Positions 7,081 through 63,093 of a stretch of 64,000 nucleotides of DNA are shown piece by piece. A model generated the notes under the pieces. The model had not been told where the DNA came from and did not search any database. It saw nothing but the letters and a program-made list of their open reading frames with translations. The translations under genes were made by a program, and so were the position numbers. This stretch comes from Catajapyx aquilonaris (Eukaryota): positions 1 through 64,000 of the forward strand of contig JYFJ02000999.1 in NCBI GenBank assembly GCA_000934665.2, read 5' to 3'. How positions within the stretch are numbered: position 1 is the first letter of the stretch; the number at the start of each line of letters is the position of its first letter.

Positions 7081-8659
7081 TTACTTCAACGTAATGGAAT
7101 CAGGGAGGTCTTCCTTCGTATAGGCATGGATGAGGCTGATTATGTTCGCCTCACAAGCAAGCTGATACTTTTGCGGGACCTCGTTCCTCAGAAGGAACCC
7201 AATGTACGACAGAAAACAGGAAGTTCTGTCAGGCTGATCCGTCTCGTGAGCCAGTTGCCTGAAACACACAAAATGGCATTAGAACTACTCTCGAGTGATT
7301 ATTGTAAGAAAAAAAGTTTACCGCAAAGGCGACAATTACGGTGCGTTTATGTCCTTATAATTTTTTTACAGGACTTCACCAACATGCGCATGAACTGAAA
7401 TTGCGTGAGTAATTATTTCAATCACCTGTCAATGCTGTCAAGCGTCTTCCGAATGTCAGCTGTCTCTTCGTCACACTCTTGCAATGCAGCCTCAGTTGTC
7501 CTCGCTCTCTTCCTGTTTTGATGAGGTACGTTGCATGAAGAGGCAGGATTCATATTAGAGGTTCGGGTTGGAGGAGGGGCTGGTGCGGACAACGAAGACG
7601 AGCCACCTGCCAGAGGGGTTGGGTTCTCGCAAGGTGTTTGAAGACCTTCACTCTCCACATTGAAGTCCATATAAAGAGTGCCACCTTCCGTAACTTCGCT
7701 TTCAGTTTTGACTTCAATAATGCCTGCCGCGTTGTCTACAGGGTGCTCTCCAAGGTCAATTTCAGGGCAGATGCTATCTTCGCTGGCTCCGTCAGACGTG
7801 CCCGGCACATCCAGGATATGAGACTGATCAGGCTCTTTGCTCACGGTGAAACTTCTCCTGAAAAATGTAGGTATTCGCAGGTTGAATGCGTGGCATGCGC
7901 TAATTGTCATTATGACGTCAAGTGAAATTATTACCAAAAGTACGTACTCGGTTTCAGTTACTAATTTTGTCAATTTTGACAATTGCAATGACATGGGACA
8001 CTTGGTAGAAGTACAAAGACGTAAAAAAATAATAATTACTCACTTCCTAAAACCAACTGCGTCTTTCAAAAACATCAAGTCCTTGAAGTATGGCCATGTG
8101 GTGCATTTGACACTGAGAATCCCATGGGTTGCTCTAATGTCGCCAAGTATGATGCGGAACTTGTCAACCAACACTTTCCAAATCCTTTTGCATTCAGTAA
8201 CTGCGGAAAAAAACTTTGTAATTGCGGACTTGACATACACAGTCAATTAATTAGCGCATAAGTAACAGAGTGCAATTACCCTCCATTTCCATACTCTGCG
8301 CCACTTGGAACCACGCCCAATGCGCATTGCTCCGGGTCCTGTTTGACATGAGAGGCTTCTTCCATAGCTCAGGCCACTTCCGCACTTCCACGATGAGTTT
8401 TCTCCTCCTCACCGCGTCCTCTCGTCTCAGCGCAGCACGGTGTTCTTGCAGCTGTTTCCTTGTGGACGCGGTCTTGTACGCCTGCACACACTGGGGAAAA
8501 AGCAACTGTTGACAATTCCCTGGCACACGCAAAGGTGTTAATTTACACAAATTGTGCGCATACCTTATTACCGCAATTTTGGGAAACGGCTAAGGGGTCG
8601 GCTGCGTAACGACCGGCGACAGGCACAGCGACCAAGCCCTCGTTATTCACAACCTCCAT
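7081..8659 (-). CDS. MADF-BESS transcription factor; exons 8659-8564, 8490-8280, 8200-8044, 7857-7426, 7258-7081
   Basis: MADF motif LIVEVRKWPELW...AWFQVA...ECKRIWKVLVDKFR...WPYFKDLMFL. C-terminal BESS-like motif DRTSCFLSYIGFLLRNEVPQKYQLACEANIISLI. Intron phases are compatible throughout. Confidence 0.85.
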
Positions 8660-9041
8660 TGCGGCTTCTCCAGCCACCTTCCTTCAATGCAAACGTATCC
8701 TCCGCAGTACCACAGCTGTCAATCCGCCTTCTTCGTTTCACCTAGGACATACAAAACAATCAAATTAGACCGCTGCGGTGCATCAGGTTGGAATATTAAT
8801 AATTCCTTTCGCTTTTTCCTTTTTGCAAATTTTTGGTCAGGTAGCAACAACAACATAATATCAACCAGAGATTCTCTCCATTACACAAATGGTTTGTTGA
8901 TTTGTACAGCACCATGCCAACGTGTAGATAGTCCATGGCAACAAAGCGCAACGAAGCCATCATGGCAACAGCGGATTCGATTCGAATGTGAATGAAATAA
9001 TAAAGACAAAGAAAGAAGAAGAAGAAAAAAAAAATGCTTAC

Positions 9042-9200
9042 GTTTTGGACAGAGAAGCGGCCATCTTGGAAGCCAAAGGGTGCGTTCCCATCGGCGGATC
9101 GAAAAAAAAAACAGATCTGTTCCCTCATCTTATTCATTGGACTGTTTAAAAATCGCAGATTCGATAGGAACGGCTACTGCGAGTCGCGGCTACTGATCCC
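9042..9200 (-). promoter_or_regulatory. Promoter/first exon of the MADF gene, same module as the zinc-finger promoters
   Basis: GCCATCTTGG (YY1/Pho-type core), GGGTGCGTTCCCATC and GGAACGGCTAC..GTCGCGGCTACT. The latter two match 12385-12485 and 16560-16660. Splice donor AC|GTAAGC at 9041. Confidence 0.6.
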
Positions 9201-9636
9201 CGTTACATACGCTAGTCGCTCTTTTTACATATGCAAACTGATATTTAATCATTTTTAATGTAAGGCTAATTTTAAGTGAAGGTTTTATTTTTATTTCATC
9301 CTCATTTTGCTTTACAATAATTACAGTATTCATACAGCCTGAAATTAAACAAACAATTATCATGGTACATAAAGTAATAATGACAATTTTAAGCCGGATG
9401 CAAACTAAACGTAGCCCGCACAACTTTTGCACGCTTTCCATCAATCGCAACACTTCTTAACACAAATGAACAAAACTATTGCGAGTGTCGGAGTGTGCGG
9501 TACTTTGTCTGCATCAATACATGAAGCCGGTTCGACTTATTTCGTTAGCACATTCGGCAGAGGTTTCACCTGAACGAACCTCCCGTCACTTTTGAATGAA
9601 CCAATCCTCTCTACAATCTGTAACAGAATATTCCGG

Positions 9637-11844
9637 CTATCGGGCATGTACCTTCATGTGGGTTCTTAAAGCTGCTAACTGACGAAACGGTCTTTTACAA
9701 ACACTACAACTGTATGGCATCTCCCCAGTGTGTATTCTGAGATGTGCACTTAAAGCATTTGGGTGGCTAAATTTCCTCTTGCAAATCTCACAAGCAAATG
9801 GTTGCTCGCCCGTATGCGTCCTCATGTGCAATCTCAAAGCGCGTAAATTACAAAACCTTTTTTTGCATTCATCGCATTCAAATGGCTTTTCCCCGGTGTG
9901 GGTCATAATGTGCCTCCTCAAACCAGATGGTTGAGACAGCTTTTTCCCACATATATGACAACTGTAGGTCCTTTCTCGTGTGTGCGTGTTCACATGATTT
10001 ATCAAAGCAGATATCTGACGAAAGTTTTTATTGCAAATCTGGCAAGTATATGGCCGTTCACCCGTGTGGGTTCTCATGTGGACATTCAAATAAGCCAACC
10101 GGCCAAAAGCTTTCTGGCAAACGAGGCAACTAAATGGCTTCTTCCCTGAGTGTGCATGAAGGTGCGCTTTCAGGCCATGTTCAAGGCTAAACTTTTTCTG
10201 GCAAATGTGACAACCATATGGCTTTTCCCCAGTGTGCGTCCTCATATGCAGAACTAACCCACGTCGCTTCGCAAATTTGCTGCTACAAAACTCGCAACTG
10301 AATCGCTTCTCTCCTGTGTGAGTTGTCGTGGTGCACATCTTTGGGTTCTGCAACTTCTTTGCATTTTCTTCATCAACTTTCTGTTGGTGCTGCTGAAATG
10401 TGCAAGAATATATTGTCACCCAAGGTTCCTTAAATTTTTAGTTAGTTTTCTAGAAAAAGTATGTTGCGTTTCTTCAACTGCGAGACATTTTGACATTTTT
10501 CTTGACTTTCATATATAACTTTATTTTTTTTGGATAATGCGCAACAAGAGTAATCTGCAGCCGGACATTGGAAGTACAGTGTAAATGCATTCACAAGTAT
10601 TGATTTTGTGTATCTAGATGCAATGGCATACCTTATGCGTTGCTTCATGTGAAATGTCCAAAGGATCCCGTTCAAAATGAGTCGCACTTGCCACAGCAAC
10701 CAGTTCCTCTTCCTCCGCTGGCTCCACTTTGACATCCTCGACATCTTCTTCTTTGACCTTGGCAAGACACTGATATGCAGAGGGCTCCTCCTTCAGTCGC
10801 AACTTCCACTCCTCCTCTGTGGTGATGCTCCCTTCATCATCCTCTTCCTTTTTGATCTCCATTGACATCCTAGGTTTAATCTGTGATAGATCATAAGGTA
10901 ATTATTGTCGAATTACAGCGCTAATGACTCAAATCGGGTACGACAATTGGTCTGCTAATTGAAATCCTAATAAATTACTGTCAGCGAAGGACATACAAAA
11001 CGACCGACAGCTATCATTGACATAATTATCGTCGCTGTGGAGTCAGAACCACGTAACGCGAAAAGGCACATTTTTTAGGCGAGCAAAAAAACTGTATTGC
11101 GGTTAGATGGAATATTTTTACAAGTGCACACCTATTATTATTGATGCATTGATAACTGGTACACATTTGTATAAATTGCACAAGTGGTATCTTTTATTCA
11201 ATCTTTTTGATCTCCTGAAAAATTCCCATATTACGAGATACGTGGTTTTGACACCACAGCTTTAGTTATAATTAACACTAGAACCGTGGCGTCCTTGAAA
11301 GTTATGTTAACTGTGACGTGGGGATCTTTTAGGACCCCCTCCATAGTTTAATTTTTTATTAATTTTGACATAATACTTTTCAGTGTATTGACTATATGCA
11401 ACCATTCATTGAACAATGCCTAATATGATCGCTAATTCAAAATAAACATGCACTTCCTGTTATATACTGTAAAAAAATGGCAAACAGTTCCTTGTAATTA
11501 TCGTTTTAATTCCTTTGGGGGTCCTAATGATCCCAGGTCACGGTTCCAGAGTTGAAATCATGAAAAGTTCCTACTGCCTCCTGTGGCGGCATTCCAGTTA
11601 CGAGATGTTTGACCAGGACTCCCATTAATTAGCCATAGTAATGTCGCACTGTGTGTACCTTCTTACTTGTCCCATCTGATGCTGCAATGGCTAATGCATC
11701 TTGCTCATTATCAGGGGCATCCGGCCAAGGGTTCATCTTCTCTTTTTCCCTCTTTCCCTCTCCGCCACATCCCAAAGAGTCAACCCGGCTTAACCGGGGC
11801 TGTCCTCTCCCTCCTTGAAACCATTTCTTGATCTTCAACGACAT
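9637..11844 (-). CDS. C2H2 zinc-finger protein Z1, 8 fingers; exons (11844-11659), 10880/10868-10632, 10392-9637
   Basis: Tandem CxxC..HxxxH fingers with TGEKP linkers. The acidic exon ends AAG|GTATG (phase 0). The upstream divergent exon is tentative. Confidence 0.85.
11276..11551. mobile_element. Short non-autonomous DNA element with TTAA-type flanks (piggyBac-like MITE); paralogous copy at 15283-15732
   Basis: Ends TTAA-CACTAGAACCGTG ... CACGGTTCCAGAG/GGG-TTAA form imperfect inverted repeats, with internal inverted GGGGTC/GACCCC motifs. Confidence 0.55.
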
Positions 11845-13066
11845 GGATCTGCAAATTTAGTTCCTGATGAGTGTCGTACAGGTGCCATGCCGCATGCGGA
11901 AGGGAATTTATTTACCTGACCAGTACCTGACCCTGCGGGGAATCCATGATTCTGCAGCATATGACTGCGGCCTGGGATATCTGCGGTGGTCAGCAACAGT
12001 TCACGACACGACGAGGGCTGCCTTATTCACGCTACGGCTAGGCCTTCTTGTCAACCACAGCCTGATGTGCATGACCCCCTGTAAAGAACATTAAACCAGT
12101 CATACGGGCCTCTTCTAAAAAGTACAGCAAAGGAAAGGGGGGGAAAAAAATACTCGACAAACCTTCGCCATTCAACTGATAAGAATAAGTGAGATAAACA
12201 AGGGGTGCGTTCCTACTCACAGCCCTACACACTTAATGGTTCGTTCCTTTTTGTCCAACTGTGAACTGGAAAGAACTAAAAGCGTGATGATTTTACTAAA
12301 AATCATTTAAAAAAAATTAAATACGTAAAAAATAGAGGAAGAGTTTAAAAGCGAAGAGAAGATGACATAATTGTGATTACAAATGCTGGGTGCGTTCCCA
12401 TCCGCGGATCAAAAACCGATCTGTTCCCTTGTCACCGCTTAAACGCTATTCAATAGGAACTGCTAACACAAGTCGCGGCTACTTATCATTTGCTGGTAGC
12501 TCTTTTATCTGAAAATTTGTCATTAAAGTGGGAGTGAACTATTGTTATTAATTTATTCGTCTTGATTTACAATTATTGCAATCGTAACAACCTGGGAGTG
12601 AACAACAGTACATAACAAAGATAGGCTCTGGTACATAAGATATAAGGCTAATTTAATGCAGAATTCAAACAAAATGTAATTATTATCCTGACTTTTTTCT
12701 TTTCTTTTGCAGATTATGTGACATTTTCAACAATGTCAACACTACCTAACTCTCATGAACAAAACTAATTACCAGTCTGCAAGCAAGTGTGGTTCATCTA
12801 TACGTGACATGGGTTGGATTTTACATACTTGGTCCTGGACTTATTTGTCAGCATGCTGCACACCAGCTTTCACTTGAAATAACAATGCATGTCCTCCCAT
12901 CATCACTTTCGACTGAACTACTCCTGTACAATCCGCAACAGAATATTCCAGCTATCGTGCATGTACCTTCATGTGCGAATATATAAAGTAGCAAAATAAC
13001 GAAATTGTCTTTTACAAACAATACAAGTGTGTGGCATCTCCCCAGTGTGAATTTTGAGATGCGTAC

Positions 13067-16023
13067 TCAAAAATGCTGACTAAATTTCCTCTTGCAAACC
13101 GTACAAGCAGATGGTTGCTCATCTGCATGTGTCCTCACATGCAATGTCAAAGCATGTAAATCACAAAACCTTTTTTTGCACTCACGGCATTCAAACGGCT
13201 CTTCCCCAGTGTGCGTCCTCATATGCAGAACTAACCCACGTCGGTTAGCAAATTTGCTGCCACAAGACTCACAACTGAATAGCTTCTCTCCTGTGTGAGT
13301 CTGCAAGTGTACACTCAGACACGATTGGCTGTTGAATATCTTACCACAAATATGGCAAAGAGAACTTTGTGGTTTCAATTCAACAAGCATCCGCAGATGC
13401 TGTGACATATCGGCCGTCTGACTACCCTTTTTATTGTGCACATGACATTTAGATGTCTCCTCCGATGAATGTATTTTTGCATGTTTCATCAAATCCGGCA
13501 TATTACGAAATGTAACCCCACAAATGTGACATTTATGTGCTGTAGCTAATGAATGCAACTGCTCTGCTGCCAAACTCTCTGCAGCTAAATGCTCATGCAC
13601 ATGCTGTGTAAATTCAGATGTCTCTGTAAAAGATTTCTTGCAAAATCGACATACAATTCGTTGATTTGCTGCACGTCTCTTCAACCTTCCTGTCGAAGAA
13701 GATGCCACACGAAAATCTCCCTTTCCAGTGTTACACCCACTTGGCCGTCCTGCTGTGCTTGTCGTGGTGCACATCTTCTGGTACTGCAACTTCCTCGCAT
13801 TTTCTTCATCAACTTCCTGTTGGTGCCTCTGAAATGTGCAAGAATATTGTCACCCATGCCTTCTTGTGCATTTTGTCATAGTTACAGGTGAGGCAGAATT
13901 GTTGCAGTTTTTTCCCCTCTTCAAACATTTAGTTCTTGTGTGCGCGGGAGTGATAGGTGAACGTCTAATTTTGATAGGAAAGGTCCATTGCTTACAAAAA
14001 TTCAAGATTTTAAAGATTCTTAAATTTTTAGTTAGTTCTCTAGAAAAAGTATGTTGCGTTTCTTCAACTGCGAGACGTTTTGACATTTTTCTGGACTTTC
14101 ATTTCTAACTTTATTTTTTTTGGATAATCCGCAACAAGAGTAATCTGCAGCCGGACATTGGAAGTACAGTGTAAATGCATTCACAAGTATTGATTTTGTA
14201 TATCTAGATGACTATCAGGAGTATTGGTTATGTAGAAATAATTACCTTATTACTTTCACCTAAGCAGAGGAAACATTCATGTAACACAACAAAAACATGT
14301 AAAATCATGAAATACCGTACAATATTATAGTTTTCTTAAAAAATAGTGAAGTATTTATCCTTCACATACACACCCTGCTGTTTTAAATTTAACTACGGAA
14401 ATACAAAACAAATGCTTAATAGGCCTGAATTACAGTATTTGACAAGAAAACATACATTTATCGCTGGAGCAGGACGGTTGGATAAACCGAGAAGCCGGAT
14501 AATCTGAGGTGGGACAATCGTCCCTAAAGGAGCAATGATTCTTCCAATGGGGCAAGTAAAATAAAATAAAATAAATAAATAAAATAATTTAATTGAAGCA
14601 GGATGGCAATGACATACCTTATGCAACGCTTCATGTGAAATGTCCAAAGGATCCTGTTCAAAATGAGTCACACTTGCCACAGCAACCAGTTCCTCTTCCT
14701 CCGCTGGCTCCACTTTGACATCCTTGACATCTACATCTTTGACCTTGGCAAGACACTGATATGTAGGGGGCTCCTCCTTCAGTCGCAACTTCCACTCCTC
14801 CTCTGTGGTGATGCTACTTTCATCATCCTCTTCCTTTTTGATCTCCACTGACATTAGAGGTTTAATCTGTGATAGATCATAAGGTAATTATTGTCGAATT
14901 ACAGCGCTAATGACTCATATCGGGTACGACAATTGGTCTGCTAATAGAAATCCTAATAAATCACTGTCAGCGAAGGACACATAAAATGACTGTCAGCTAT
15001 CATTGTCATAATTATGGTCGCTGTGGAGTCAAAACCACGTAACTCGAACAGGCACATTTTTTAGGCGAGCAAAAAAAAACTGTATTGCGGTTAGATTTAA
15101 TATTTTTACAAGTGCACATCTATTATTGATGCATTGATAACAGGTACACATTTGTAAAAAGAAAAAAGAGATTACATCTCAATGTGCACAAGTGGTACCT
15201 TTTATTCAGTCTTTTTGATCTCCTGAAAAATTCCCATATTTCGAGATACGTGGTTTTGACCTCACAGCTTAGTTGTAGTTAATGCTGGAACCGTGACGTG
15301 CTTGAAAGTTACGTTAACCGTGAAATGGGGTCTTTTAGGACCCCAAGCCATATTTTAATTTTTATTAATTTATACATAAAGGCCCATTCACATAGGCCGT
15401 CGACGGTTTTGGTTTTGGCTTTGGACCAATCAGAGCGGGCCCTCACGGTAACCATGACGCGTTGTTTACGAGAGGGCCCGTTCTGATTGGTCCGCGGCGC
15501 TGACGAGACCAAAAACCAAAACCGTCGACGGCCTGTGTGAATGGGCCTTAATACTTTTTCAGTGTATTGACTATATGCAATCATTCTTTGAACAATGCCT
15601 AATATGATCGCTAATTCAAAATAAACATGCACTTCCTGTCATATACTTTTTTTAAAAGGCAAAAGTTCATTGTAATTATCATTTTAATTCCTTTTGGGGG
15701 GTACTAAATGATCCCACATCACGGTTCCAGGGTTAAAAACACGAAATGTTCCTACCGCCTCCTGTGGCGGCATGCCAGTTACAAGATGTTTGACCAGGAA
15801 TCCCATTAATTAGCAATAGTAATGTCGCACTTGTGTGTACCTTACTAGTCCCATCTGATGCTGCAATGGCTAATGGATCCTGCTCATTATCAGGGGCATC
15901 CGGCCAAGGGATCATCTTCTCTTTTTCCCTCTTTGCCTCTCCGCCACATCCCAAAGAGTCAACCCGGCTTAACCGGGGCTGTCCTCTCCCTCCTTGAAAC
16001 CATTTCTTGATCTTCAACGACAT
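13067..16023 (-). CDS. C2H2 zinc-finger protein Z2, ~5 complete fingers, C-terminally truncated by a frameshift; exons (16023-15841), 14866/14854-14618, 13828-13067
   Basis: Finger exon resembles Z3. A small deletion near 13070 gives SQHF*, and a decayed last finger follows at ~12950-13066. Confidence 0.75.
15380..15548. mobile_element. Palindromic PIF/Harbinger-type MITE with TAA target duplication
   Basis: Terminal inverted repeat AGGCCCATTCACAYAGGCCGTCGACGGTTTTGGTTTT. TAA at 15377-15379 and 15549-15551. The paralogous site at ~11371 is empty, with a single TAA. Confidence 0.9.
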
Positions 16024-17106
16024 GGATCTGCAATTATAGTTCCTGATGAGTGTTGTACAGGCGCCATGCCGCATGCGGAAGGGAATTTATTTACCTGACC
16101 AGTACCTGACCCTGCGGGGAATCCATGATTCTGCAGCATATGACTGCGGCCTGGGATATCTGCGGTGGTCAGCAACAGTTCACACACGACGAGGGCTGCC
16201 TTATTCACTCTATGGCTAAGCCTTCTTGTCAACCACAGCCTGATGTGCATGACCCCCTGTAAAGAACCATTAAACCAGTCATACGGGCCTCTCTAAAAAA
16301 AGTACAACAAATAAAGAGGAAAAAAATACTCAACAAAACCTTCTCCATTCAACTGATAAGAATAAGTGAGATAAACAAGGGGTGCGTTCCTACTCACAGC
16401 CCTACACACTTAATGGTTCGTTCCTTTTTGTCCAACTGTGAACTGGAAAGAACTAAAAGTGTGATGATTATGCTAAAAATCATTTAAAAAAAATTAAATA
16501 CGTACAAAATAGAGGAAGAGTTTAAAAGCGAAGAGAAGATGACATAATTGTGATTACAAATGCTGGGTGCGTTCCCATCCGCGGATCAAAACCGATCTGT
16601 TCACTTGTCACCGCTTAAACGCTATTTCGATAGGAACGGCTACACCAGTCGCGGCTACTTATCATTTGCTAGTAGCTCTTTTATCTGAAAATTTGTCATT
16701 AAGTGGGAGGGAACTATTGTTATTAATTTAATCGTCTTGCTTTACAATTATTGCAATCCTAACAACCTGAGAGTGAACAAAATAATTCATGGTACATAAG
16801 AAGGCTAATTTTATGCAAAATCCAAACAAAATGTAACAAAAACACAGGCCACTTTTTTTTTTTTTTGCCGATTATACGACATTTTCAACAATCTTAGCAC
16901 TTACTAACTATCATGAACAAAACTAATTACTAGTCGGCAAGCAAGTGTGGTTCATACATATGTGACATGGATTGGATTTTCAGCGTGCTCCTTGACTTAT
17001 ATGTCAGCATGTGTGCACACAATACACAAGCGTTCACTTGGAATAGCAATGCATGTCCTCCCGTAACTTATGACTGTACCAATCCATGTGTAACAGAATA
17101 TTCCGG

Positions 17107-19699: not shown

Positions 19700-19794
19700 G
19701 CTTCTGGAAAGTGAAAAATCCCAGTCAGATTGCATAGTACGGAATCTAAAGAGCCAGTGCCTCCTCCTCCTTCCAACCCACCTGTCCCCAGTGC

Positions 19795-36154: not shown

Positions 36155-36237
36155 ATAATTATCACATGCACTCTGTTTCTCTGAACCATGACATACCGGG
36201 GTTTGGAGGCTCCTTGCCTGGCTTCAGTTGTGGATGA

Positions 36238-47670: not shown

Positions 47671-47679
47671 TTCCAGTCG

Positions 47680-50093: not shown

Positions 50094-50098
50094 ATATG

Positions 50099-50266: not shown

Positions 50267-50703
50267 CTGAAATGTGCAAAAATATTCTATCATCAAAGGC
50301 TGTCTGTGCATGTTATCATTATTACAGGTCAGTCCATTTTTTTTTTCTCATGCATATTGTTGCCCTGTATACAGAAATGTAAGGTGGATATCTATTTTTC
50401 CTAATACCAGGTGGTCAAACTAGCAATGTTCATTGCTTGCAAAAATTCTGACTATTTAGCTGCATTTCAATAACCAAAAAATAAATATAATAAAGCATTT
50501 GAAAGAGTTCAAAATAGATAGATGCGAGAGCCCTGCATTCATGATGTTATCTGTCAGGCCGATCATGTAATTGATAAGAAGGGAGCACATACTACACAAG
50601 AGGCGCAAACTTCTACGTCTGAAGAATATCAAAGTCAGTCTTGCCAAAGCCCTTCAAAGCATTTCTCACGTTTTTCAAGGTTTTCCGCGCGATTCAGATG
50701 AAA

Positions 50704-53024: not shown

Positions 53025-54642
53025 TTAACCTTTCTCCTGCAAACCTGCCTTTTCTTCTGTGTGAGTCTTAACGTGTCTTTTAAAATCAGTTGAGCGACTA
53101 TACTTTTTACCACAGGTCTCACAGCAATAGGGCTTCTCTCCTGTGTGAGTCCTGGTGTGTGCGGTCAGATACTTCGCGTCACTGAATGTTGCCTCGCAAA
53201 ACTGGCAGGCAAATGGTTTTTCTCCTGTGTGAATTCGGATATGTCGCTTCAAAGAAGACGGCCTAGTGAACTCCTTTTTGCAAATGTGACAACTAAATGG
53301 TGTTTCCCCGGTGTGCAACGTCATATGTCGTTTCACATCGGATGACTTGATAAACTCCTTGTTGCAAACCGGACAACTGAACGCTTTCTCACCAGTGTGA
53401 ATTCTTGTATGTTTTTTCAAATTAGATGCATCAGTAAATGTTGCCTTGCACATCTGGCAGCTAAACGGCTTTTCACCAGTGTGAGAACGCATGTGTCTGT
53501 TAAAGTCATATTTGTGAATGAACCTTTTACCACAACGATCACAAGAAAATGGTTTTTCTCCCGTGTGGGTCTTTACATGTCTGTTTAACTCAGCTATGCG
53601 CCTAAACTTTTTTCCACACGTATCGCAAGGAAGATGACATGTAGCACGAAAATCGTCCCTTCCCACGTTACATCCGCTTGACTCTCCTTCCATATGTGTT
53701 GCATTGGACATTTTTGTGTGCTTCCTCTTCTTCACATATTCCTCACCACCGCTCGGTTGTTGTTCCTGCAATATGCAAAAATATATTTGATCACCCAAGG
53801 CTGGTTGTACGTTTTGTCATTATTACACATCTTTCACAACACAAAAATTGTATGATTCTTGGAAATACACAGTCAAAATACAGGATCACTGTCTTAGAAT
53901 TGAGATCCAATAACTTCCTACACTTCCTTATCGCCAGACGTGAAGCTGTCATAATGCCCAACAACGCAATACCCTTTCTGGTGAAAGCTGCTCCCAACCA
54001 ACAATTCAAATGGCGACCTCTGCGCCATAACGTGAAACTTCCGCAAATAAGCCATGTTCGGAATATCAAATCAGATGTACGGAAGAGATAAATGCATTGG
54101 TGGTATTAATTTTGATGTAATTTTTAAAATGGTGTAGCCCCCCAAAAAAAGCTGAACTTTGAGCTGGATGCTTTTTGAAGGTCAAACAGTGTATGTACAA
54201 AAATTACATTAAATTTTAATAGTCATCAGTCTGGCAGATCAATGATGCGCAGTACAGTATATTGTTGACTGTCAGGAGTACTGATTTACTGTAAATGATT
54301 ACTACCTTGTGCTTATGCCTAGCCATGAAAGCAAATTTTTCATAATGTCTCATGCATAATAGCAACAGCATGAGAGTGGCGCACCTTATCAGACTCATCA
54401 TGGGAAATGTCTAAAGGATCTTGTTCAAAATTAGGAACATTTTCCACATAGACCAAATCCTCTTCCTCCACTGGCTCCACTTTGACTTCCTTGATGCCTT
54501 CTTCTTCCTCTTCTTTGATAAGACCCTCATAGAAGCACGTAGAGGGCTCCTCCTTCACACTCAGCTTCCACTCCTCTGTGGTGATGCTCCTTTCATCATC
54601 TTCCTCTTCTTCTTCCACTTCTTTTTTGATTGCCAATGCCAT
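53025..54642 (-). CDS. C2H2 zinc-finger protein Z12, 7 fingers; exons 54642-54385, 53765-53025
   Basis: Acidic exon plus open finger exon with canonical TGEKPF linkers. Confidence 0.88.
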
Positions 54643-55494
54643 GGTCCTGAAACATTCGTAATTCCCAATAAGGTGTTACGTAGTACAAATATCTAAAAGG
54701 TCCCCAGCAATTATTAATGAATATTCACTACATCTTAGTGAACACTTATTGATGCTAACCCAACGCATTTCTAATTAATGGTCATTAAGAAGCTGACTTT
54801 TTCTAATGGCAATATTTAGAGCGTGACACAGTTTAATTTTAAAGGTACCATGTGAAATGTGTAGCATCCATAATTGGGGGATCTGATGCTTCTGAGTCTC
54901 TTGGTGTTACATGCCCACCTTAGTGCAGCTGCTCAGGAGCATGTATAGACTTAAATCACAATTAATTCATATTAAATATATCATAGTTTCAATTAATGTC
55001 GATAAAAAATGTTGCATACTTTTTTGGGGGAGACGCAATATCCCACGTCCAAAACAAAAAATTGGGATCAAGCCCAACAGATTCCAATGTGAAAAGGTCG
55101 TACAGAAATGTGCAATTTTTTTCAATAATGACATGTGAAAAAAGCTGCACATCAAAGACAATAATTTGCTGAGAAGTGCAGTTGAGGAACGTGTGTCATA
55201 CAATTATCACTTGATAGCCACACATTAGTGAGATGCCAATGGCTGCGTTACATTCAGAACCCTTCAGCCTACCTCCCACTGCTCATCCTTCGGCCCTCGT
55301 GCCTTCTCCTTTCCTCAGAACGAGGCAAAAGGGAAGAAAAAACAAGCAGAAAGTGACTCCAGAAGAGACGCCATCTTGGATTAGGAAAAAAAAAAGAAAA
55401 AAGAAAAAAAGGGTGCATTCCCATCGCCGCACAATAGACAGGGAGGGGATTAAACGCTATTGAGAAAGGAACAGCGATGACAAGTAACAGCGCG

Positions 55495-55797
55495 ACAAAA
55501 CGAATATTATTGTATGGGGCGAATTGTTATTGTGATTGTTACTTTCATCGGAAACAATTATTGGTTTCGTTTCTGAGCGAATTGTTCACATGTAAATGCG
55601 GCCTAAAAACATATTGAAGTGTCCTAGTGCAACATTATAAGCTGCGTTTACATGTGAGCGAATTATCAACGAAATTGCTGCAATATGTCATCGCCAACAA
55701 TCGGGGTAACAATATTTTTATCGCCCCAAACAATATTGGTATCGTTGCTTGCCAAAGACTTGCTGATAATTTGCTCTCAATGTAAATGTGGGTCTAG
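55495..55797. mobile_element. Degenerate Harbinger-like MITE copies
   Basis: GCTGCGTTTACATGTGAGCGAATTATCA versus the inverse TGATAATTTGCTCTCAATGTAAATGTGGGTC, plus a partial end CATGTAAATGCGGCCTAA at ~55590. Confidence 0.4.
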
Positions 55798-56427: not shown

Positions 56428-57093
56428 TTAATGTTTTTCTCCTGCATGGTTGAGCATCATGTGTTTTTGCACACTAGATGAAACTTTAAACTTCTTATCG
56501 CAAACCTGGCAATTATATGGCTTTTCTCCTATGTGAGTACTCACATGTCTAGTTAAATCAGATGAGCGAGTAAACTTTTTCCCGCAAATCTCACAACAAA
56601 AAGGCTTCTCACCCGTGTGAATTCTGATGTGTGCGTTCAGAGCAGACGAATCACTGAATGTTGCCTCGCAAAACTGGCAGGCGAAGGGTTTATCCCCAGT
56701 GTGAGTTCGCATGTGACGTTTTAAGTCAAAACTGTGAGCGAAACTTTTCCCGCAATCATGACAAGAAAATGGTTTTTCTCCTGTGTGGGTCTTCACATGT
56801 CTCTTCAAATGACTTGAACGACTAAACTTTTTCCCACAAAGATTGCAAAGAAGTTGCTGCTCTTCTGTTAAATGTTCACATACGTGAGGTGTAGAATCAG
56901 ATGACTCTGACAAAGATTTCTTGCAAACTCGACATACTTGTTGACTTCCTGCATATGTCTTCACCCATATTGCCGAAGGAGATGCAGCACAAAAACCTTC
57001 CTTATTCCCAGTGTCACATCCACTTGGCTCCCCTGCCACTCTTGGGTGCTTCCTCTTCATCGCATTTCCTTCATCAACACCATGTTGTTGTTC
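56428..57093 (-). CDS. Orphan C2H2 finger exon Z13b (5-6 fingers), probable alternative terminal exon of Z13
   Basis: Intact phase-0 acceptor TGCATTGCAG|GAA and open frame. There is no promoter or acidic exon in the ~230 bp between it and the Z13a stop. Confidence 0.65.
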   Translation of the reverse strand, partial: EQQHGVDEGNAMKRKHPRVAGEPSGCDTGNKEGFCAASPSAIWVKTYAGSQQVCRVCKKSLSESSDSTPHVCEHLTEEQQLLCNLCGKKFSRSSHLKRHVKTHTGEKPFSCHDCGKSFAHSFDLKRHMRTHTGDKPFACQFCEATFSDSSALNAHIRIHTGEKPFCCEICGKKFTRSSDLTRHVSTHIGEKPYNCQVCDKKFKVSSSVQKHMMLNHAGEKH

Positions 57094-57324: not shown

Positions 57325-59052
57325 CTAGCTTACAGGAGCTGAAATCACGGGAGCCTCTTCATGCTTGAGCATGTGTTTCTTCAAACTGGATGGAACCATA
57401 AACTTTTCCTTGCAAATCTGGCACTCATATGGTTTTTCTCGGGTGTGAGCAAACATATGTTCTTTAAAATCAGTTGAATGACTACACTCTTTCCCGCAAA
57501 TATCACAACAATAAGGGTTCTCGTCCGTGTGAATTACGGCATGTGCGGACAGAGCAGACGAATCGATGAATGTTGCATTGCAAATCTGACAACTGAATGG
57601 TTCAGGATGGATTCTCATATGATTTTTCAAAGCGCCTGAATAACCATATGATGCCCCACAAACCTGACAGCTAAACGGTCTCTCTCCCGTGTGCGAACGC
57701 ATGTGTTTTTTCAAACCAGAAGGTGCTGGAAACTTTCTCTCGCAAACATGACAGTGATAAGGCTTTTTTCGTGTGTGAACACTCATATGTCTTTTAAAAT
57801 CAGTTGAGTGGCTAAACTCTTTCCCACAAATATCACAAGGATAATAAAGTTTCACTCCCGAGTGATTTCTGATGTGTGCGGTCAGATAAGAAGCTTCATC
57901 AAATGTTGCCTTACAAACTTCACAGGTGAATGATTTATCCACTGGGTGATTGAGCATGTGTAGTCTCAAATCAGATGAATTACTACACTTCTTCTTGCAA
58001 ATCTGGCAACTATACTTTCCTCCTGTGGCAGCCCTTGAAATTCTTTTTAACTCGGTTGAATGACTAATCTTCTTCCTACGAACCTCGCGAGGAACCTGTT
58101 TCGTTGCTAATTGTTCACATTCATGCGATTTAAAATCAGATGACTCTGTAAATGATTTTTTGCAAAATCGACAAGTTGCACATTTTGTAGACGTAGATGC
58201 CGCATGAGAACCTCCCATTTTAGAGTTACATCCACTTGGTTCCGCTACTATGTCAATGTGTATCACAGGGCACATTTCTGGGTTCTTCTTCTTCTTCAAA
58301 TTTTCTTCATTGGTCTGTTGGTGTTCCTGCAATACATGCAAAAATATACTCTATCACCCAAGGCTGTTGGTGCATTTTGTCATAATTACAGGCAAAGCAG
58401 TTTTTTTTTTTTTTCCCACGACTGTTTCTTCCTGTGTGTGCAGTCTGAATAAAAGATGATCAGAAAGATGGTCGCCTAATTTTTCTCTAACTCCTAGGAA
58501 AGGTGGTCAAACTAGGAAGGTCTCTTGTTTACAAAAATTCAGCTTAAATGACAATTAATCCATATAACTGTGCTCTAGAACTGAGATAAGGTATCCTGAT
58601 ATCAGGTGCATTAACTTCTTTTGACATAATTATGTCGAGGGGAATGCCCTGGATTTTATAACTGACAAGTGAGTATTGAGACCATTTTCAGTAATGGATG
58701 CATGGATAATATGCGACATGGTTAATCGGGAGTGCAATGTACTTCTCACTTTACGCCTAACCTAGAAAGCAAATTTTTGCATTATGTCAGAATTTAATAG
58801 ATGCAGCATGACAGTCATGTATACCTCATGGGAAATGTCTAACGGATCCTGTTCAAAATGAGTCGCATTTGCCACAGCAACCAGTTCCTCTTCCTCCACT
58901 GGCTCCACTTTGACATCATCTTCTTCTGCGCTGGTAAGGCCCTCGTAGAACGGTGCTGAGGGCTCCTCCTTCACCGCCAACTTCCAGTCCTCCTCCGTGG
59001 TGATGCTCCTTTCATCATCATCTTCCTCTTCCTTTTTGATAGCCAACGACAT
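57325..59052 (-). CDS. C2H2 zinc-finger protein Z13a, ~8-9 fingers; exons 59052-58825, 58326-57325
   Basis: Acidic exon plus open finger exon. Confidence 0.85.
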
Positions 59053-60130
59053 GCTCCTGGAAAATAAAACCCAGACTGGTCACATATAGTACAGCATCTA
59101 AAGGCGCCCAACAATACATTAACATTATGGAGTATTAGTGACCACTATTGCTTTACTCTGAACCCCTTTTGGACCCAGGAACCCTTCAGCCGGTCCCACT
59201 GCTAGTCCTTTGGCCGCTGTCCCTTCTCCTTCCTCAGAACGAGGCAAAAGAGAAGGAAAAACAAGCAGAAAGCAAGGCAGAAAGTGACTCCAGAAGAGAC
59301 GCCATCTTGGATTTGGAAAAAAAAAAGAAAAAAGGAAAAAGGGTGCATTCCCACCGCCGAAAAGGAAAAGAGTGCATTCCCACCGCCGCACAATAGACGG
59401 GGATGGGATTAAACGCTATTGAGAAAAGAACAGCGATAAGGAGTAACTGCTACCGATCACACAATATGGAGTCATACATTACGCTTTTGTTATTAATTGC
59501 CTAATTAGGACCCCTAATGACTCAATTTTGTTGTATGTCCTGTTGGCACTTTTTCTGTAATTTTAACCTCCCTATATAAGCCTAGGGAGGGATTATCACT
59601 GATGACAGCTTAACATTTGGCTGGTGACATGAAAGGTGATGTGAGGTACTTTTTTTGTTTGTCCCCCATAATTTTCTTTTGCATCTTAAAGAAATATTAT
59701 TATTAGCTTCCTCTGCAAGAGAGGCCTGAGATAGAGGGACTATGGCAAAATAATCACAGGCATTACATTTGGGGAAAAGAGTGGATTTTATTGACTCACC
59801 ACATTTTCCTTAGGAAGTTTCTCCTACACCAAATGTTCCCACGCTGTACTTATAAAATGTGTAGTTTTAGGCCTTTTCTCTTAGTCATGGCCTGCTGGTC
59901 TATGCCTACTGTCAGTACTCTCAGTACTCTGAAAATGCGCTATGTAGCTCGTACATACCCAATCAGAAGAACAAAATGTCGTTTATTCTGCATATACAGA
60001 GAGTGACACGGATATCCAGATAAGAAACAGCGAATAAATTATTACAATTACATGGGTTTACAGTGGAGGGGGTCTTGCGAGGAAAAGTGTGTCACTTTTC
60101 CTTTCAAGCCTAACAATCATGTGGGTTTTC

Positions 60131-62392
60131 TCAGATGCGAGCGCAATCATGTCTTTTTAAAGCCATCGAGCGACTGAACGTTTCCCCACAAATATCGCAA
60201 CAGTAAGGTGTGTCTACCATGTGAATTCTGACATGTGCGGAGAGAGCAGATGAACCACTGAATGCTGCCTTGCAAAACTGGCAGGCGAACGGTCTTTCTC
60301 CTATGTGCTTAATGAGCATGTGTTTTTCCACCGACAATGGATGCGAAAACTTTGCCGTACAAACCTGGCAGCCATATGGCTTTTCTCGGATGTGAACAAA
60401 CATATGCTGTTTACAATCAGTTGGGCAACTGAACTCTTTTGCACAAATACCACAACAATAAGGCTTCTCTTCACTGTGAATTCTGACATGTGCGAACAGA
60501 GCAGAAAAATCACTGAATCTTGCATTGCAAACATGACATCCAAATGGTCTCCCTTTAAGGTGGATTCTCACATGGTTTTTCAAAGCCTTTAAATAACCAA
60601 ATGATGCCTGACAAACCTTACAGCTAAATGGTGTCTCTCCGTGCGACCGCATGTGTCTTTTCAAAGCTGAAGGCCATGCATACTTTCTCTTGCACACCTG
60701 ACAGTCATATGACTTTTTTCTGGTGCTTATCATGTGGCACATTTCCGGGTGCTTCCCCTTCACATTTTCTTCAGTGGTCTGTTGTTGTTCCTGAAATATG
60801 CAAAAATATACTATATCACCCCAAGGCTGTTGGTGCATTTTGACATCATTACAGGTCAATCAGGATGTTTTTTATTTTAAAAAGACAGTTCTTCCTGTGT
60901 GTGCGGTCATCGCTGGTAACCCAATCTTGGGAATATGCCGTGAGTGTAATGAACGAATGAATATGAATGATAGCTGACCTCTACATTGAGCTAATTTTTA
61001 AAATGGTATGGCACAAATGGAAGAACATTAATCAGTATGCTTTTTGAAGGTCATGTGATGTTAAAAACATAAAATTAATGTTGTAATATTTATCAGAGGA
61101 GAGGAATTATGCTGCATTCAAACCCTTGGAAAAAGTAACCCCCATTATGCTACTGTAAGGTGCTTCCCCTGGATTTCTACAGGGAACCCAAACAAACAAA
61201 TTTCCCAAAGGTTATTATGCCATCATTTTTTGGCGCATTGACAATTTAATCCATATAACTGTTACTTGCTCCAGAAATGAGATGAGAAATCCTGATAGCC
61301 AGTGCATGACTTTATTATGACACATGCTGAGGTGGCCTAGTGCAATGCCAAGGATTTTTTTACTGAGTGTTCAGATCATTTTCATTACTGGCTCTTGCTC
61401 AAATGAGGCTGCCTGCCAAGGTACGATTGCATAACATGAACCACGGTATTGATTGTATACAAGTATGTAGATGCCTATCAGGCATATTGACTAACGAGAC
61501 TGATTAAACTGTACTCCCAATTATCCGTGCTAATTAATGCACAAGTGTGCCTGGAAAACAGGGATCCAAAACCAGTCCTACAGACACCATAAAAATGTGT
61601 TATTCTCAGATTTTTAAATGAACTACTGCATATGCAATATGCTGATTTAAATATGGTTTCATCGAAATAATATAACTCACCACAGATTTTAAATTTGTCT
61701 TCTGAAAAATATGTTAGGCTATCTTTCTTTGTTTGCCTGACATTCTTTCATAATTTCATTTCTAATCTGTTTTTTTGGCGATGCATGGATAATATCCAAC
61801 ACGGATAATCGATACTACAGTGTACTTCTTGCCTAGCCTTGAAAACAATTTTTGCATCATGTCATAAATTAATAGGCAAAGCATGACAGTGAAATACCTG
61901 ACGAAAAACTCCATGGGAAATGCCAAAGGGATCCTGCGCAAAATGAAGAAGCGCTTCCACACTGATCAGATCATCTTCCTCTGCTGACTCTTCATGCCCG
62001 CGTAAGTCTCCGACAGTCTTCTAAGGAATAGATGCATCACAAAAATGACTATCAGTAGTACTGATTCACTTGGAAATGATTACTACTTCTTGTTTAGCCT
62101 AACCTTGAGAGTAATTTTTGCATCAGCACATCGCATGTCAGTGACGTACCTCATGAGCTGCTTCCTGGTGAATGTCTAACGGATCCTGTTCAAAATGAGT
62201 GACATTTGCCACAGTCACCAGATGCTCTTCTTCCACTGGTTCTACTTTCACATCCACTTCATCAATGGTAAGGCCCTCGTAGAACTGCGCACACGGCTCC
62301 TCCTTCAGCCGCAACTTCCACTCCTCTTCATCCGTGGTAATGCTCCCTTCATCATCATCTTCCTCCACTTCTTTTTTGATTTCCAACGACAT
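60131..62392 (-). CDS. C2H2 zinc-finger protein Z14, ~7 fingers; exons 62392-62150, 60790-60131
   Basis: Acidic exon plus finger exon. The stop is CGA to TGA relative to the Z15 tail ARIREKPHDC. Confidence 0.82.
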
Positions 62393-63093
62393 GTGCCTGG
62401 AAAATAATGGAATCGAACGCTGTCTATTATTCTATTCTAATCTATGATCCTTCAATCAACTGGTTTTCAGAAGTTACTAAAGGCAGGTACGTACACTCCA
62501 GGTGGTTTTCTTGCGTCCATACAAATTTGTCCTCCTTCCAACCCACAGCTTCCCACTGCTGTCCCTTCTCCTTCCTCAGAACGAGGCAAAAGAGAAGGAA
62601 AAACAAGCCGAAAGTGACTCCAGAAGAGACGCCATCTTGGATTGGAATAAAAAAAGAAAAAAAGGGTGCATTCCCACCGCCGAAAAGGAAAAGGGTGCAT
62701 TCCCACCGCTGAACAACGTACAGGGATGGGATTAAACGCTATTAAGAAAAGAACAGCGACAAGTAACCGCTATCATACCTAAAGCGTTGCAGTGCTCTCA
62801 GTGATCTGAAAGTGGGCTAGGTAATTCGAACATACAATTAGAGAGAGAAAAAAATGACGTTTATTCTGCATATTAGTGACACTGACATCTATAGATAAGA
62901 AGCAATACTGTAACAAAATTATTAGACTACCATTACATGGGTTTACACTGACGTATGATGGGGAATTCTGAATCAGATGACACCACAGAGTGCTAGACTA
63001 TGGAGCTCAAATGACAGGAGATGAAATCATGGGAGGCTAATGGTTGCGGATGTCACGACGCAAACTTGATGGGACGACACACTTTTTGCAAGC

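Follow-up and report, generated by a model that had tools for sequence, protein, structure and literature searches.

A tandem zinc-finger gene cluster with a putative lineage-specific effector cassette that may also head THAP and MADF coding sequences

In the KRAB zinc-finger genes of tetrapods, a small effector module lies on its own exon or exons upstream of one large, fast-changing C2H2 exon; the genes form tandem clusters, and the module is also fused to other DNA-binding domains. The ZAD zinc-finger genes of insects carry a lineage-specific N-terminal module on clustered invertebrate C2H2 genes; this module, ZAD, is a four-cysteine zinc-binding fold. Other regulators, MADF(-BESS) proteins, possess a MADF DNA-binding domain. 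In PMC10547256, FiNZ is described as a 28-residue module restricted to cyprinids, and both KRAB and FiNZ as Glu-rich and associated with repression. KRABINER-type KRAB-transposase fusions, as presented in bioRxiv 10.1101/2020.05.07.082677, involve a transposon in the intron of an effector-plus-finger gene. For the locus described here, a 64-kb window (the whole stretch of DNA that was analyzed), we assign a probability of roughly 0.6 to the following reading: it is a tandemly duplicated transcription-factor family with a lineage-specific effector cassette akin to KRAB or FiNZ, which probably acts as a repressor and also heads a THAP and a MADF coding sequence.

An initial annotation claimed 14 canonical copies of an acidic exon of about 80 aa. 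All 14 were located in the window, all on the minus strand and 76-92 aa in length, and an nhmmer profile recovers every full copy with E values of 3e-86 to 3e-73. Two decayed extra copies and one partial duplicate are listed with them.

10632-10868, minus strand: acidic exon, g10868; lacks an intact promoter module, has an acceptor-like, in-frame CAG 12 nt ahead of its ATG
14618-14854, minus strand: acidic exon, g14854; lacks an intact promoter module, has an acceptor-like, in-frame CAG 12 nt ahead of its ATG
19457-19699, minus strand: acidic exon, g19699
22593-22829, minus strand: acidic exon, g22829
25046-25297, minus strand: acidic exon, g25297
28424-28669, minus strand: acidic exon, g28669
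32039-32293, minus strand: acidic exon, g32293
34726-35004, minus strand: acidic exon, g35004; canonical donor gone
40911-41159, minus strand: acidic exon, g41159
46682-46927, minus strand: acidic exon, g46927
51642-51887, minus strand: acidic exon, THAP-bearing gene g51887
54385-54646, minus strand: acidic exon plus 4-nt leader, g54642; both borders supported by a spliced RNA contig
58825-59052, minus strand: acidic exon, g59052; donor four codons earlier, phase 0
62150-62392, minus strand: acidic exon, g62392
11684-11855, minus strand: decayed extra acidic exon upstream of g10868; start and 3' end recognizable, interior differs
15836-16033, minus strand: decayed extra acidic exon upstream of g14854; ends AAG/GTAC, phase 0
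61887-61993, minus strand: partial duplicate of the acidic exon 3' half within the g62392 intron; possible phase-0 acceptor and donor

The homologous codon boundary is a GT donor in 13 of the 14 exons, which places these donors in phase 0. In g35004 the canonical donor is gone (AGC GAC); the next GT in frame follows 30 nt downstream and is in phase 0 too. Thus, the claim that a phase-0 donor ends every copy holds, with a shifted site in one gene.

A canonical gene has three exons: a non-coding exon 1, the acidic exon 2 of roughly 80 codons, and an exon 3 composed of a linker and variable C2H2 sequence; both coding junctions are in phase 0. This structure is confirmed by RNA for one gene, g54642: an RNA contig (run X5, record 12) joins 55272-55375, 54384-54645 and 53565-53764, and neither of the two GT..AG joints occurs in DNA run X1. 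One conserved phase-0 acceptor, TTTGCACATTTCAG/GAGCAACAA (the slash marks the splice border, here and elsewhere), begins all 15 complete finger or remnant exons, and zf-C2H2 was detected in 15 ORFs. As initially described, the acidic exon leads to a C2H2 exon in 13 copies.

9637-10392, minus strand: C2H2 exon, g10868
13067-13828, minus strand: C2H2 exon, g14854
17107-18276, minus strand: C2H2 exon, g19699
20475-21731, minus strand: C2H2 exon, g22829
23560-24669, minus strand: C2H2 exon, g25297
26217-27482, minus strand: C2H2 exon, g28669; one in-frame stop at 27243-27245
29718-30731, minus strand: C2H2 exon, g32293
33266-34447, minus strand: C2H2 exon, g35004
36238-36771, minus strand: C2H2 exon, g41159; 3 fingers
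42498-43487, minus strand: C2H2 exon, g46927
53025-53765, minus strand: C2H2 exon, g54642; 5' border supported by the RNA contig
57325-58326, minus strand: C2H2 exon, g59052
56428-57093, minus strand: orphan C2H2 exon with the same acceptor, without its own acidic exon or promoter
60131-60790, minus strand: C2H2 exon, g62392
50084-50266, minus strand: finger-less C2H2 exon remnant, g51887; linker only, 60 codons, same acceptor

The members that look decayed are g28669 (in-frame stop), g51887 (0 fingers) and g41159 (3 fingers). In 112 fingers, variability peaks at helix positions -1 and +6, with an entropy of 3.5 bits versus a mean of 1.9 at non-contact positions.

Twelve of the 14 acidic exons lie behind a strongly conserved promoter and non-coding first exon. 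Exon 1 is roughly 100 nt long and begins at a conserved GGGAATGCACCC...TCCAAGATGGCG promoter. The core TCCAAGATGGC is exact at 13 sites, and when up to one mismatch is allowed, there are 16 matches versus 1.3 expected. A related promoter had been claimed upstream of every acidic exon; this stands for the 12 intact modules, but 1.5 kb upstream of g10868 and g14854 there is only a diverged promoter piece without the TCCAAGATGGC core (E 3e-9 and 5e-8, respectively).

19758-20045, minus strand: promoter and non-coding exon 1 module, g19699
22893-23141, minus strand: promoter module, g22829
25351-25659, minus strand: promoter module, g25297
28736-28977, minus strand: promoter module, g28669
32347-32655, minus strand: promoter module, g32293
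35135-35394, minus strand: promoter module, g35004
41236-41525, minus strand: promoter module, g41159
47021-47304, minus strand: promoter module, g46927
51995-52279, minus strand: promoter module, THAP-bearing gene g51887
55224-55529, minus strand: promoter module, g54642; the RNA contig begins inside TCCAAGATGGC and covers exon 1 from ~55375 to 55273
59152-59487, minus strand: promoter module, g59052; internal duplication
62499-62792, minus strand: promoter module, g62392; internal duplication
12365-12489, minus strand: diverged partial promoter module far upstream of g10868; no TCCAAGATGGC
16542-16665, minus strand: diverged partial promoter module far upstream of g14854

The shared 5' end might be a functionless by-product of recent tandem duplication in an ordinary, partly decaying zinc-finger cluster. 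Some tandem units are indeed very recent (dS is 0.03 between g10868 and g14854) and several members are damaged. However, the median dS between acidic exons is 0.43 with a dN/dS of 0.39, the adjoining intron is mostly beyond blastn recognition while exon and promoter persist, and one member (g54642) is transcribed and spliced. We therefore regard a by-product as highly improbable. Because the median dN/dS is 0.39 and dN is smaller than dS in 90 of 91 pairs, the acidic exon is, as judged from codon comparisons, under moderate purifying selection.

The acidic exon looks like a disordered string of conserved short motifs and not like a folded domain: its predicted structure has a mean pLDDT of 64, a pTM of 0.17 and one 4-residue helix. 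At E<=10, Pfam gave no KRAB, ZAD (zf-AD), BTB or SCAN match in any of the 14 exons. A profile search of PDB sequences returned Geminin alone (E 0.56), and neither Pfam nor PDB gave a match to any family; the exon is thus not recognizably any of these four modules, in agreement with the initial annotation. A profile search gave 0 matches among 1.84 billion proteins, and no relative was found outside the 64-kb window. Cysteine is absent from 9 of the 14 exons, and a four-cysteine pattern occurs in none.

Each copy contains 2-4 ψKxE (SUMO-consensus) lysines, in IKKE, V/LKEE and VKVEP. These total 45 in the 14 exons versus 4.8 +/- 2.1 in 2000 shuffles (maximum 13), an enrichment that does not amount to 14 independent observations because the copies are paralogues. 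An acidic run is followed by LVAV, and 13 of 14 copies have a [VIL][VIL]x[VIL]-type patch. PLDIS, found in 11 of 14 within QDPLDISHE, departs at its fourth position from the CtBP-binding pattern. Invariant alignment columns include I5, K6, E8, K28, E29, E51, L58, D70, P71 and L72. Judging from these motifs, the exon may act as a tethered effector, most likely a repressor. As a first option, the ψKxE sites would be SUMO-modified and then read by SUMO-binding chromatin silencers; alternatively, the LVAV...DPLDIS part would recruit a co-repressor. We infer both roles from motif patterns only.

The proteins could also be activators and not repressors, if the exon is an acidic transcriptional activation domain. 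Copies of 76-88 residues carry 22-32 Asp+Glu plus conserved W, F, Y and L, and acidic stretches with aromatic residues are typical of activation domains too. Moreover, activation domains are usually disordered, as this exon is predicted to be. However, its ψKxE lysines are the most conserved positions, and the ψKxE pattern (synergy-control motifs) is a signature of SUMO-dependent negative regulation. The Glu-rich analogues KRAB and FiNZ, as described in PMC10547256, are tied to repression as well. An activating role thus seems unlikely to us, and a repressor is the preferred reading.

One acidic exon had been proposed to splice to THAP exons. In this gene, g51887, the Pfam THAP match is split over two exons (positions 1-27 and 29-87), and C-x4-C...C-x2-H is present.

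51153-51409, minus strand: predicted THAP exon A; ends with THAP profile positions 1-27, acceptor predicted
50876-51068, minus strand: predicted THAP exon B; THAP profile positions 29-87
51588-51604, no strand: 17-nt inverted-repeat arm upstream of the THAP exons
50578-50594, no strand: 17-nt inverted-repeat arm on the downstream side; overlaps a 35-nt genomic high-copy stretch, 50580-50614

Joining the acidic exon to the THAP exons gives an uninterrupted frame of 292 codons that runs in frame into the old linker exon. Thus, the in-frame join stands, but the splicing itself is predicted only. The THAP exons lie within a 1,027-bp insert between the 17-nt inverted repeats (2 matches versus 0.10 expected); no target-site duplication was seen beside these repeats, and just the last ~250 nt of the g51887 intron resemble the introns of the paralogues. 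Because inverted repeats bound the insert, insertion of a transposon into the intron offers a more specific route than exon shuffling in general, and the arrangement suggests that the THAP exons were captured from a transposon. In that event, a 1-kb insert would have landed in the phase-0 intron, and the fingers would have been lost.

The THAP exons may instead belong to a transposon fragment, or to a nested gene that has a start of its own, and simply sit inside the intron of a dying family member without being spliced to the acidic exon; the cassette would then serve only C2H2 and perhaps MADF sequences. The repeat-bounded segment is missing from paralogous introns, its right arm overlaps the high-copy stretch and the host gene is without any fingers. 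In addition, the THAP frame contains an ATG of its own, 41 codons ahead of the first zinc-binding cysteine, and could therefore be expressed alone. However, the 115-codon open frame preceding the THAP domain contains two candidate phase-0 acceptors, the joined model stays open into the linker exon, and the g51887 promoter and acidic exon are intact with every invariant residue kept. We take this possibility seriously and hold it to be the less probable one; a cassette spliced to THAP exons remains our preferred reading.

At the edge of the cluster, the promoter profile finds the region upstream of a MADF gene (nhmmer E 9.2e-7), and the acidic-exon profile aligns through its 3' half with the first coding exon of that gene (E 2.3e-5). 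The bit scores are modest (18.0 and 21.9), and 0 of 1000 dinucleotide shuffles reach either score.

9017-9222, minus strand: promoter module homologue upstream of the MADF gene; exact TCCAAGATGGC at 9060-9070
8564-8659, minus strand: first coding exon, 32 codons; homologous to the acidic exon 3' half, same phase-0 donor
8280-8490, minus strand: MADF exon a; profile positions 1-37
8044-8200, minus strand: MADF exon b; profile positions 41-84
7426-7857, minus strand: middle exon; no family match
7081-7258, minus strand: last coding exon, with the stop codon; no BESS match

The first coding exon and the acidic exon have the donor AAG/GTATGC in common, in phase 0, and the former keeps LVAV and DPL, the best conserved of the 3' motifs. 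Five exons are predicted to join by GT-AG into an open 357-codon frame ending at 7081. The MADF domain consists of two half-domain Pfam matches (14.9 and 21.6 bits), each below the gathering score of 22, and BESS gave no Pfam match even at E<=10. A decayed cassette homologue had been said to head a MADF-BESS gene; the promoter and exon homology proved significant against shuffled controls, but BESS was not detected and the splicing is predicted. Since the promoter is closest to the diverged neighbouring version, a local duplication at the edge of the cluster is the most likely origin of the cassette part of this gene, and the duplicated promoter and acidic exon 3' half would now provide the first coding exon.

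If this similarity were a dead relic of a duplicated cassette, untranslated or untranscribed, the MADF protein would start elsewhere. The modest scores, an acidic exon recognizable in its 3' half only, a frame closed upstream of the new ATG and a 5' UTR structure that could not be delimited are consistent with a relic. However, the retained donor, the ATG that opens the frame, the five joinable exons, the exact TCCAAGATGGC core and the kept motifs argue against it, and we consider a relic improbable. On the preferred reading, the cassette may twice have come to head a different DNA-binding domain, THAP and MADF. The phase-0 intron had been called permissive, and the acidic exon donor is indeed compatible with C2H2, THAP and MADF exons.

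The cluster thus resembles KRAB zinc-finger genes in its exon arrangement, its fast-changing C2H2 arrays, its tandem organization and the probable joining of its module to other DNA-binding domains. In contrast, the acidic exon has no Pfam KRAB match (0/14), is predicted to be disordered where KRAB is a small folded box, and lies in a genome that looks invertebrate. FiNZ is set apart by description only, at 28 residues in PMC10547256 versus ~80 here; unlike the cyprinid hosts named there, the present genome has invertebrate-like TRAX and CpG content. As in ZAD genes, a lineage-specific N-terminal module is found on clustered invertebrate C2H2 genes, but 9 of 14 acidic exons are cysteine-free and none has a four-cysteine pattern or a zf-AD match. 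As in KRABINER (10.1101/2020.05.07.082677), a transposon would have landed in an intron of an effector-plus-finger gene, and its DNA-binding part could splice to the upstream effector exon; here, THAP exons in an inverted-repeat-bounded insert lie in the phase-0 intron. However, the g51887 fusion transcript is a prediction, no target-site duplication was seen and the effector is not KRAB. Finally, the MADF gene shares the MADF domain with MADF(-BESS) regulators, here split over two exons, but BESS was not detected, and its promoter and first coding exon appear to be derived from a zinc-finger cassette.

From 9.6 kb to the end of the window, C2H2 zinc-finger genes form a tandem array on the minus strand. 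A motif scan of the window found the 14 copies of the acidic exon that the initial annotation had stated, without exception on the minus strand, and a DNA profile recovered all of them (E = 3e-86 to 3e-73). The protein identity between the first copy and the other 13 is 64-79%, and 20 alignment columns are invariant. In 12 of 14 copies, an acceptor (TTTCCAG/GAGC or a close variant; the slash marks the exon border) is located 4 nt 5′ of the ATG. Therefore, the acidic exon is exon 2. The phase-0 donor, which had been described for every copy, was observed as a GT at the homologous codon boundary (…AAG/GTA…) in 13 of 14 copies. However, this GT is lost in g35004 (g with a coordinate denotes a gene of the cluster), where the first in-frame GT after the lost donor lies 30 nt downstream. 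The median of the pairwise dN/dS values between acidic exons was 0.39, and dN was smaller than dS in 90 of 91 pairs, which are non-independent. The count of 14 holds for full exons, but the DNA profile detected additional partial copies:

61887-61993, minus strand, partial duplicate of the acidic exon, 3′ part retained
11684-11855, minus strand, decayed acidic-exon copy, 3′ part retained in part
15836-16033, minus strand, decayed acidic-exon copy, 3′ part retained in part

The 3′ part with LVAV…DPL persists in the duplicate at 61887-61993, partly in the two decayed copies, and in the first exon of the MADF gene. This 3′ part possibly constitutes the functional core of the acidic exon.

Using one unit as a query, blastn detected 12 full promoter modules of approximately 250-330 nt, in agreement with the promoter profile. 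A full module contains GGGAATGCACCC, a T-rich stretch, CCAAGATGGCG and a conserved non-coding exon ending in …AG/GTGGG. When one mismatch at most was allowed, TCCAAGATGGC gave 16 matches, on the minus strand only, as compared with 1.3 expected; exact TCCAAGATGGC occurs at 13 sites, of which 12 are in the cassette promoters and the remaining one lies 5′ of the MADF gene. Thus, the promoter that had been proposed to precede each acidic exon is intact at 12 of 14, but g10868 and g14854 have no adjoining module. Approximately 1.5 kb upstream of these two genes, there is a diverged promoter piece (E = 2.7e-9 and 5.3e-8, respectively) from which the TCCAAGATGGC core is absent, and a decayed extra acidic exon lies between this piece and the canonical exon. 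The ZNF143- or THAP11-type and the YY1-type were considered as candidate identities for the two promoter motifs. In the promoter modules (e.g. 55273-55375, minus strand), a short conserved upstream frame 19-23 codons long starts at the ATG within TCCAAGATGGC in 8 of 12 cases. At least 5 of 12 copies have another ATG close to the 3′ border of exon 1, which the splice brings into frame with the main ATG. Therefore, the cassette proteins may start 6-7 codons before the main ATG.

As had been claimed, a C2H2 exon lies downstream of 13 acidic exons. Pfam detected zf-C2H2 in 15 ORFs. A common acceptor, TTTGCACATTTCAG/GAGCAACAA, was found at a codon boundary in 15 exons, of which 14 contain fingers and one is a finger-less remnant, and a sixteenth finger exon extends past the window edge. 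One finger exon (56428-57093) is present without a cassette of its own. Among 112 fingers, helix positions -1 and +6 showed the highest entropy (3.5 bits), and the mean entropy was 3.27 bits at the four contact positions versus 1.95 bits elsewhere. The three-exon structure predicted for g54642 was confirmed to the base by a 573-nt contig from X5, a sequencing run of unrecorded kind. This contig maps to 55272-55375, 54384-54645 and 53565-53764, and both joints are CT..AC on the plus strand (GT..AG on the minus strand) and absent from the DNA sequencing run X1. The 5′ end of the contig falls within the TCCAAGATGGC motif. X5 behaved as RNA at g54642.

Several features of the finger genes were observed in addition. 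The C2H2 unit that directly follows the linker of the finger exons (e.g. 30500-30560, minus strand) is conserved among paralogues and the later fingers are not; this unit may have a role other than DNA recognition. In g19699, a coding 15-nt tandem repeat (…LAAER…, approximately 20 times; 17750-18040, minus strand) has expanded between the conserved first finger and the variable fingers. One in-frame stop (27243-27245, minus strand) interrupts the finger exon of g28669, and this gene may be a recent pseudogene or the stop may be a polymorphism. A conserved open frame is present in the second intron of three genes (18306-18593, 21809-22021 and 27567-27785, minus strand); this frame may belong to a repeat or to an alternative exon. 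A protein search with the linker of a finger exon gave no match.

The remaining acidic exon belongs to g51887, for which in-frame splicing to THAP exons had been proposed. Its acidic exon (51642-51887) is followed by two exons encoding two parts of a THAP domain (Pfam THAP positions 1-27 at 15.9 bits and 29-87 at 34.1 bits), which are separated by a phase-2 GT-AG intron. A C2CH zinc signature with FP, W and AVPTIF-like residues is typical of THAP; the joined frame contains C-x4-C…C-x2-H, and ALPTLF is intact. When exon B of the THAP domain was compared with longer proteins in the protein search, no match was obtained. A 115-codon open frame precedes the THAP domain, and there are two candidate phase-0 acceptors in it. 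The predicted model joins the acidic exon, THAP exons A (51153-51409) and B (50876-51068) and the former linker exon (50084-50266) into a frame that stays open over 292 codons; therefore, in-frame joining of the acidic exon to the THAP exons is possible, and we predict this splicing from the sequence. In X5, the THAP exons are almost without coverage (bins 0 to 0.9), which we read neither way. The old finger exon of this gene has a stop after 60 linker codons and zero fingers.

How the THAP exons came to this position was considered from the surrounding intron. The similarity of the g51887 intron to paralogue introns is confined to the last approximately 250 nt, and the segment holding the THAP exons is missing from the paralogous introns. 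The THAP exons are flanked by 17-nt inverted repeats at 51588-51604 and 50578-50594 (16 of 17 complementary), which bracket 1,027 bp; a search of the window for the repeat pattern gave 2 matches versus 0.10 expected. In the DNA run, a 35-nt stretch overlapping the downstream arm reaches approximately 140-fold single-copy depth. A target-site duplication was not observed beside the inverted repeats. Our reading is that a transposon-borne THAP segment was probably inserted into the phase-0 intron of g51887.

Other transposon-related frames are present inside the cluster. A pogo-like transposase frame, intact over 495 codons (HTH_psq, Tc5 DNA-binding and DDE_1; 44331-45815, minus strand), lies within the phase-0 intron of g46927 in the orientation of the gene, and is a second candidate for the capture of a DNA-binding domain. 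A tandem repeat of approximately 36 nt with several frames open (47282-47701) is located between a transposon and the g46927 promoter. Two long frames with weak matches to DUF7869 (37410-38882 and 47880-49344, minus strand) are probably transposon genes. One of them is in the g41159 intron and the other follows immediately after the finger-less remnant of g51887, where it may mark the event of finger loss.

The MADF gene is located between the array and other genes at the start of the window, which has a G+C content of 42% and a CpG observed/expected ratio of 0.66:

154-1094, minus strand, exons with BRCA2 repeats (Pfam)
2985-3743, minus strand, gene of the TRAX/translin family, two large exons
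7081-9222, minus strand, MADF gene, between the TRAX gene and the array

A TRAX exon scored 67.8 bits against Drosophila TRAX and 52.2 bits against human TRAX. These scores and the CpG ratio together suggest an invertebrate rather than a vertebrate source. At least four tandem exon-like ORFs at 154-1094 have one BRCA2 (BRC) repeat each (Pfam E = 6e-10 to 2.5e-14), a fifth BRC look-alike was spotted by eye at 538-714, and the ORFs appear to be parts of one BRCA2-like gene. In the upstream region of this gene, a weak resemblance to the cassette promoter was detected at 2514-2588 (E = 0.028). No Rfam family or tRNA was found in the whole window.

The MADF gene had been described as headed by a decayed homologue of the acidic exon with a related promoter. 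The acidic-exon profile matches 8558-8681 (E = 2.3e-5) with profile positions 142-264, namely its 3′ half, and the promoter profile matches 9017-9222 (E = 9.2e-7). To give controls, 8400-9300 was shuffled 1000 times with dinucleotides preserved. None of the 1000 shuffles reached the real score for the exon or the promoter, the best being 5.7 and 6.6 bits versus 18.0 and 21.9 bits, respectively. Thus, the similarity withstood the comparison with shuffled controls that the initial annotation had called for. The aligned first exon retains LVAV, DPL and the AAG/GTATGC donor, and its ATG sits at the Val codon of VKVEP in the family. The upstream part of the MADF promoter is nearest to the diverged version in the neighbours g10868 and g14854, which suggests that this cassette homologue arose by local duplication. 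Five GT-AG exons give a 357-codon frame ending at 7081, where the initial annotation had placed the start of the cassette cluster, and splicing of the MADF exons to the cassette-derived first exon is predicted. Two neighbouring exons match one half each of Pfam MADF_DNA_bdg (positions 1-37, 14.9 bits; positions 41-84, 21.6 bits), and when scanned singly both halves stay below the cut-off of 22 bits. In contrast to the earlier naming of this gene as MADF-BESS, there was no Pfam match to BESS in the last exon (E ≤ 10) or in the ORF (E ≤ 1).

What, then, is the acidic exon? It had been said to be none of KRAB, ZAD, BTB or SCAN, and hmmscan (E ≤ 10) gave no match to any Pfam family in 14 of 14 copies. 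The KRAB A-box (PF01352) was found in none of the 14 exons at this threshold. There was no match to zf-AD, the four-cysteine pattern is in none of the acidic exons and 9 of 14 are cysteine-free. SCAN and BTB domains were detected neither in the 14 acidic exons nor in the 146 ORFs scanned. The acidic-exon profile gave no match at E ≤ 0.001 among 1.84 billion representative proteins, a library whose cyprinid content is unconfirmed, and no match among longer proteins; among PDB sequences it gave only Geminin, at E = 0.56. In the ESM Atlas, hits were sub-threshold only (the best, 0.88, an unnamed chordate cluster; a KRAB cluster, 0.81), and we did not rely on them. In the parts of the literature retrieved by our search, no zinc-finger-associated domain common to THAP and MADF was found.

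AlphaFold2 with the 14-row alignment returned a low-confidence model (mean pLDDT 64, pTM 0.17) with one four-residue helix, and we read the acidic exon as a probably disordered segment. Its most conserved positions are short motifs. The sequence ψKxE is the SUMO-acceptor consensus and, with a following Pro, has the "synergy control" form; a hydrophobic patch adjoining an acidic run is a typical SUMO-binding motif. In the 14 exons there are 45 ψKxE motifs (IKKE, V/LKEE and VKVEP) versus 4.8 ± 2.1 in 2000 composition-preserving shuffles, and three of these sites are on invariant or nearly invariant alignment columns. In 13 of 14 copies, LVAV or a patch similar to it comes after an acidic run. 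The motif QDPLDISHE contains PLDIS in 11 of 14 copies. PxDLS is the CtBP-binding motif, in which the fourth position is Leu or Met, and PLDIS has Ile at this residue. In flies, recruitment of SetDB1-type silencing is reported to depend on SUMO (bioRxiv 10.1101/533091).

The initial observation on the cassette cluster is essentially right, and its best-supported reading is an effector cassette that is specific to a lineage and has a phase-0 intron of permissive nature. We hypothesize that the cassette represses transcription and has a link to transposons. In the boldest mechanism that we consider, the acidic exon would be a disordered string of SUMO-acceptor lysines with a patch for SUMO binding or for a co-repressor. 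When bound to DNA by tethering, the exon would be modified by SUMO and would directly recruit SUMO-reading heterochromatin enzymes. A DNA-binding exon landing in the phase-0 intron, such as THAP from a transposon or MADF from a neighbour gene, would then give a sequence-specific repressor. The whole reading, that the acidic exon is a new portable silencing module without a KAP1-like adaptor, giving an invertebrate equivalent of KRAB, is rather improbable in our estimation (roughly one in five). If it were true, an invertebrate lineage would have its own equivalent of the KRAB system. If repression acts via the conserved ψKxE lysines, a route of DNA-tethered silencing simpler than KRAB-KAP1 would exist, and the transposase-capture model of transcription-factor birth would be extended beyond vertebrates. 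To our knowledge, among the effector modules on fast-evolving finger arrays only KRAB is well understood, ZAD and FiNZ are understood in part, and the coupling of expanded finger families to chromatin in other animal lineages is mostly unknown. This locus is a compact and testable case. It combines an unrecognised 80-residue module, a defined promoter and a confirmed exon structure with two natural experiments, in which a THAP domain and a MADF domain appear to be preceded by the acidic module.

Among the known systems, the gene architecture of KRAB-ZNF and FiNZ-ZNF is the same as that of the cluster genes. The acidic exon lacks the sequence features that define KRAB, ZAD, SCAN and BTB. In contrast, it resembles FiNZ-ZNF in having a Glu-rich N-terminal motif encoded by one exon immediately 5′ of the finger exon. 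According to PMC10547256, FiNZ is a 28-residue Glu-rich sequence without similarity to known domains, is found only in cyprinids and occupies one exon 5′ of the finger exon, and young transposons are de-repressed when FiNZ genes are knocked down; a link to TRIM33 is proposed in PMC11603059. However, the acidic exon probably comes from a different kind of animal, neither the TRAX scores nor the CpG ratio of 0.66 being vertebrate-like, and was compared with FiNZ by description only. For g51887, the capture route matches that of KRABINER-type KRAB-transposase fusions, as outlined in bioRxiv 10.1101/2020.05.07.082677, with the difference that the splicing of g51887 is predicted.
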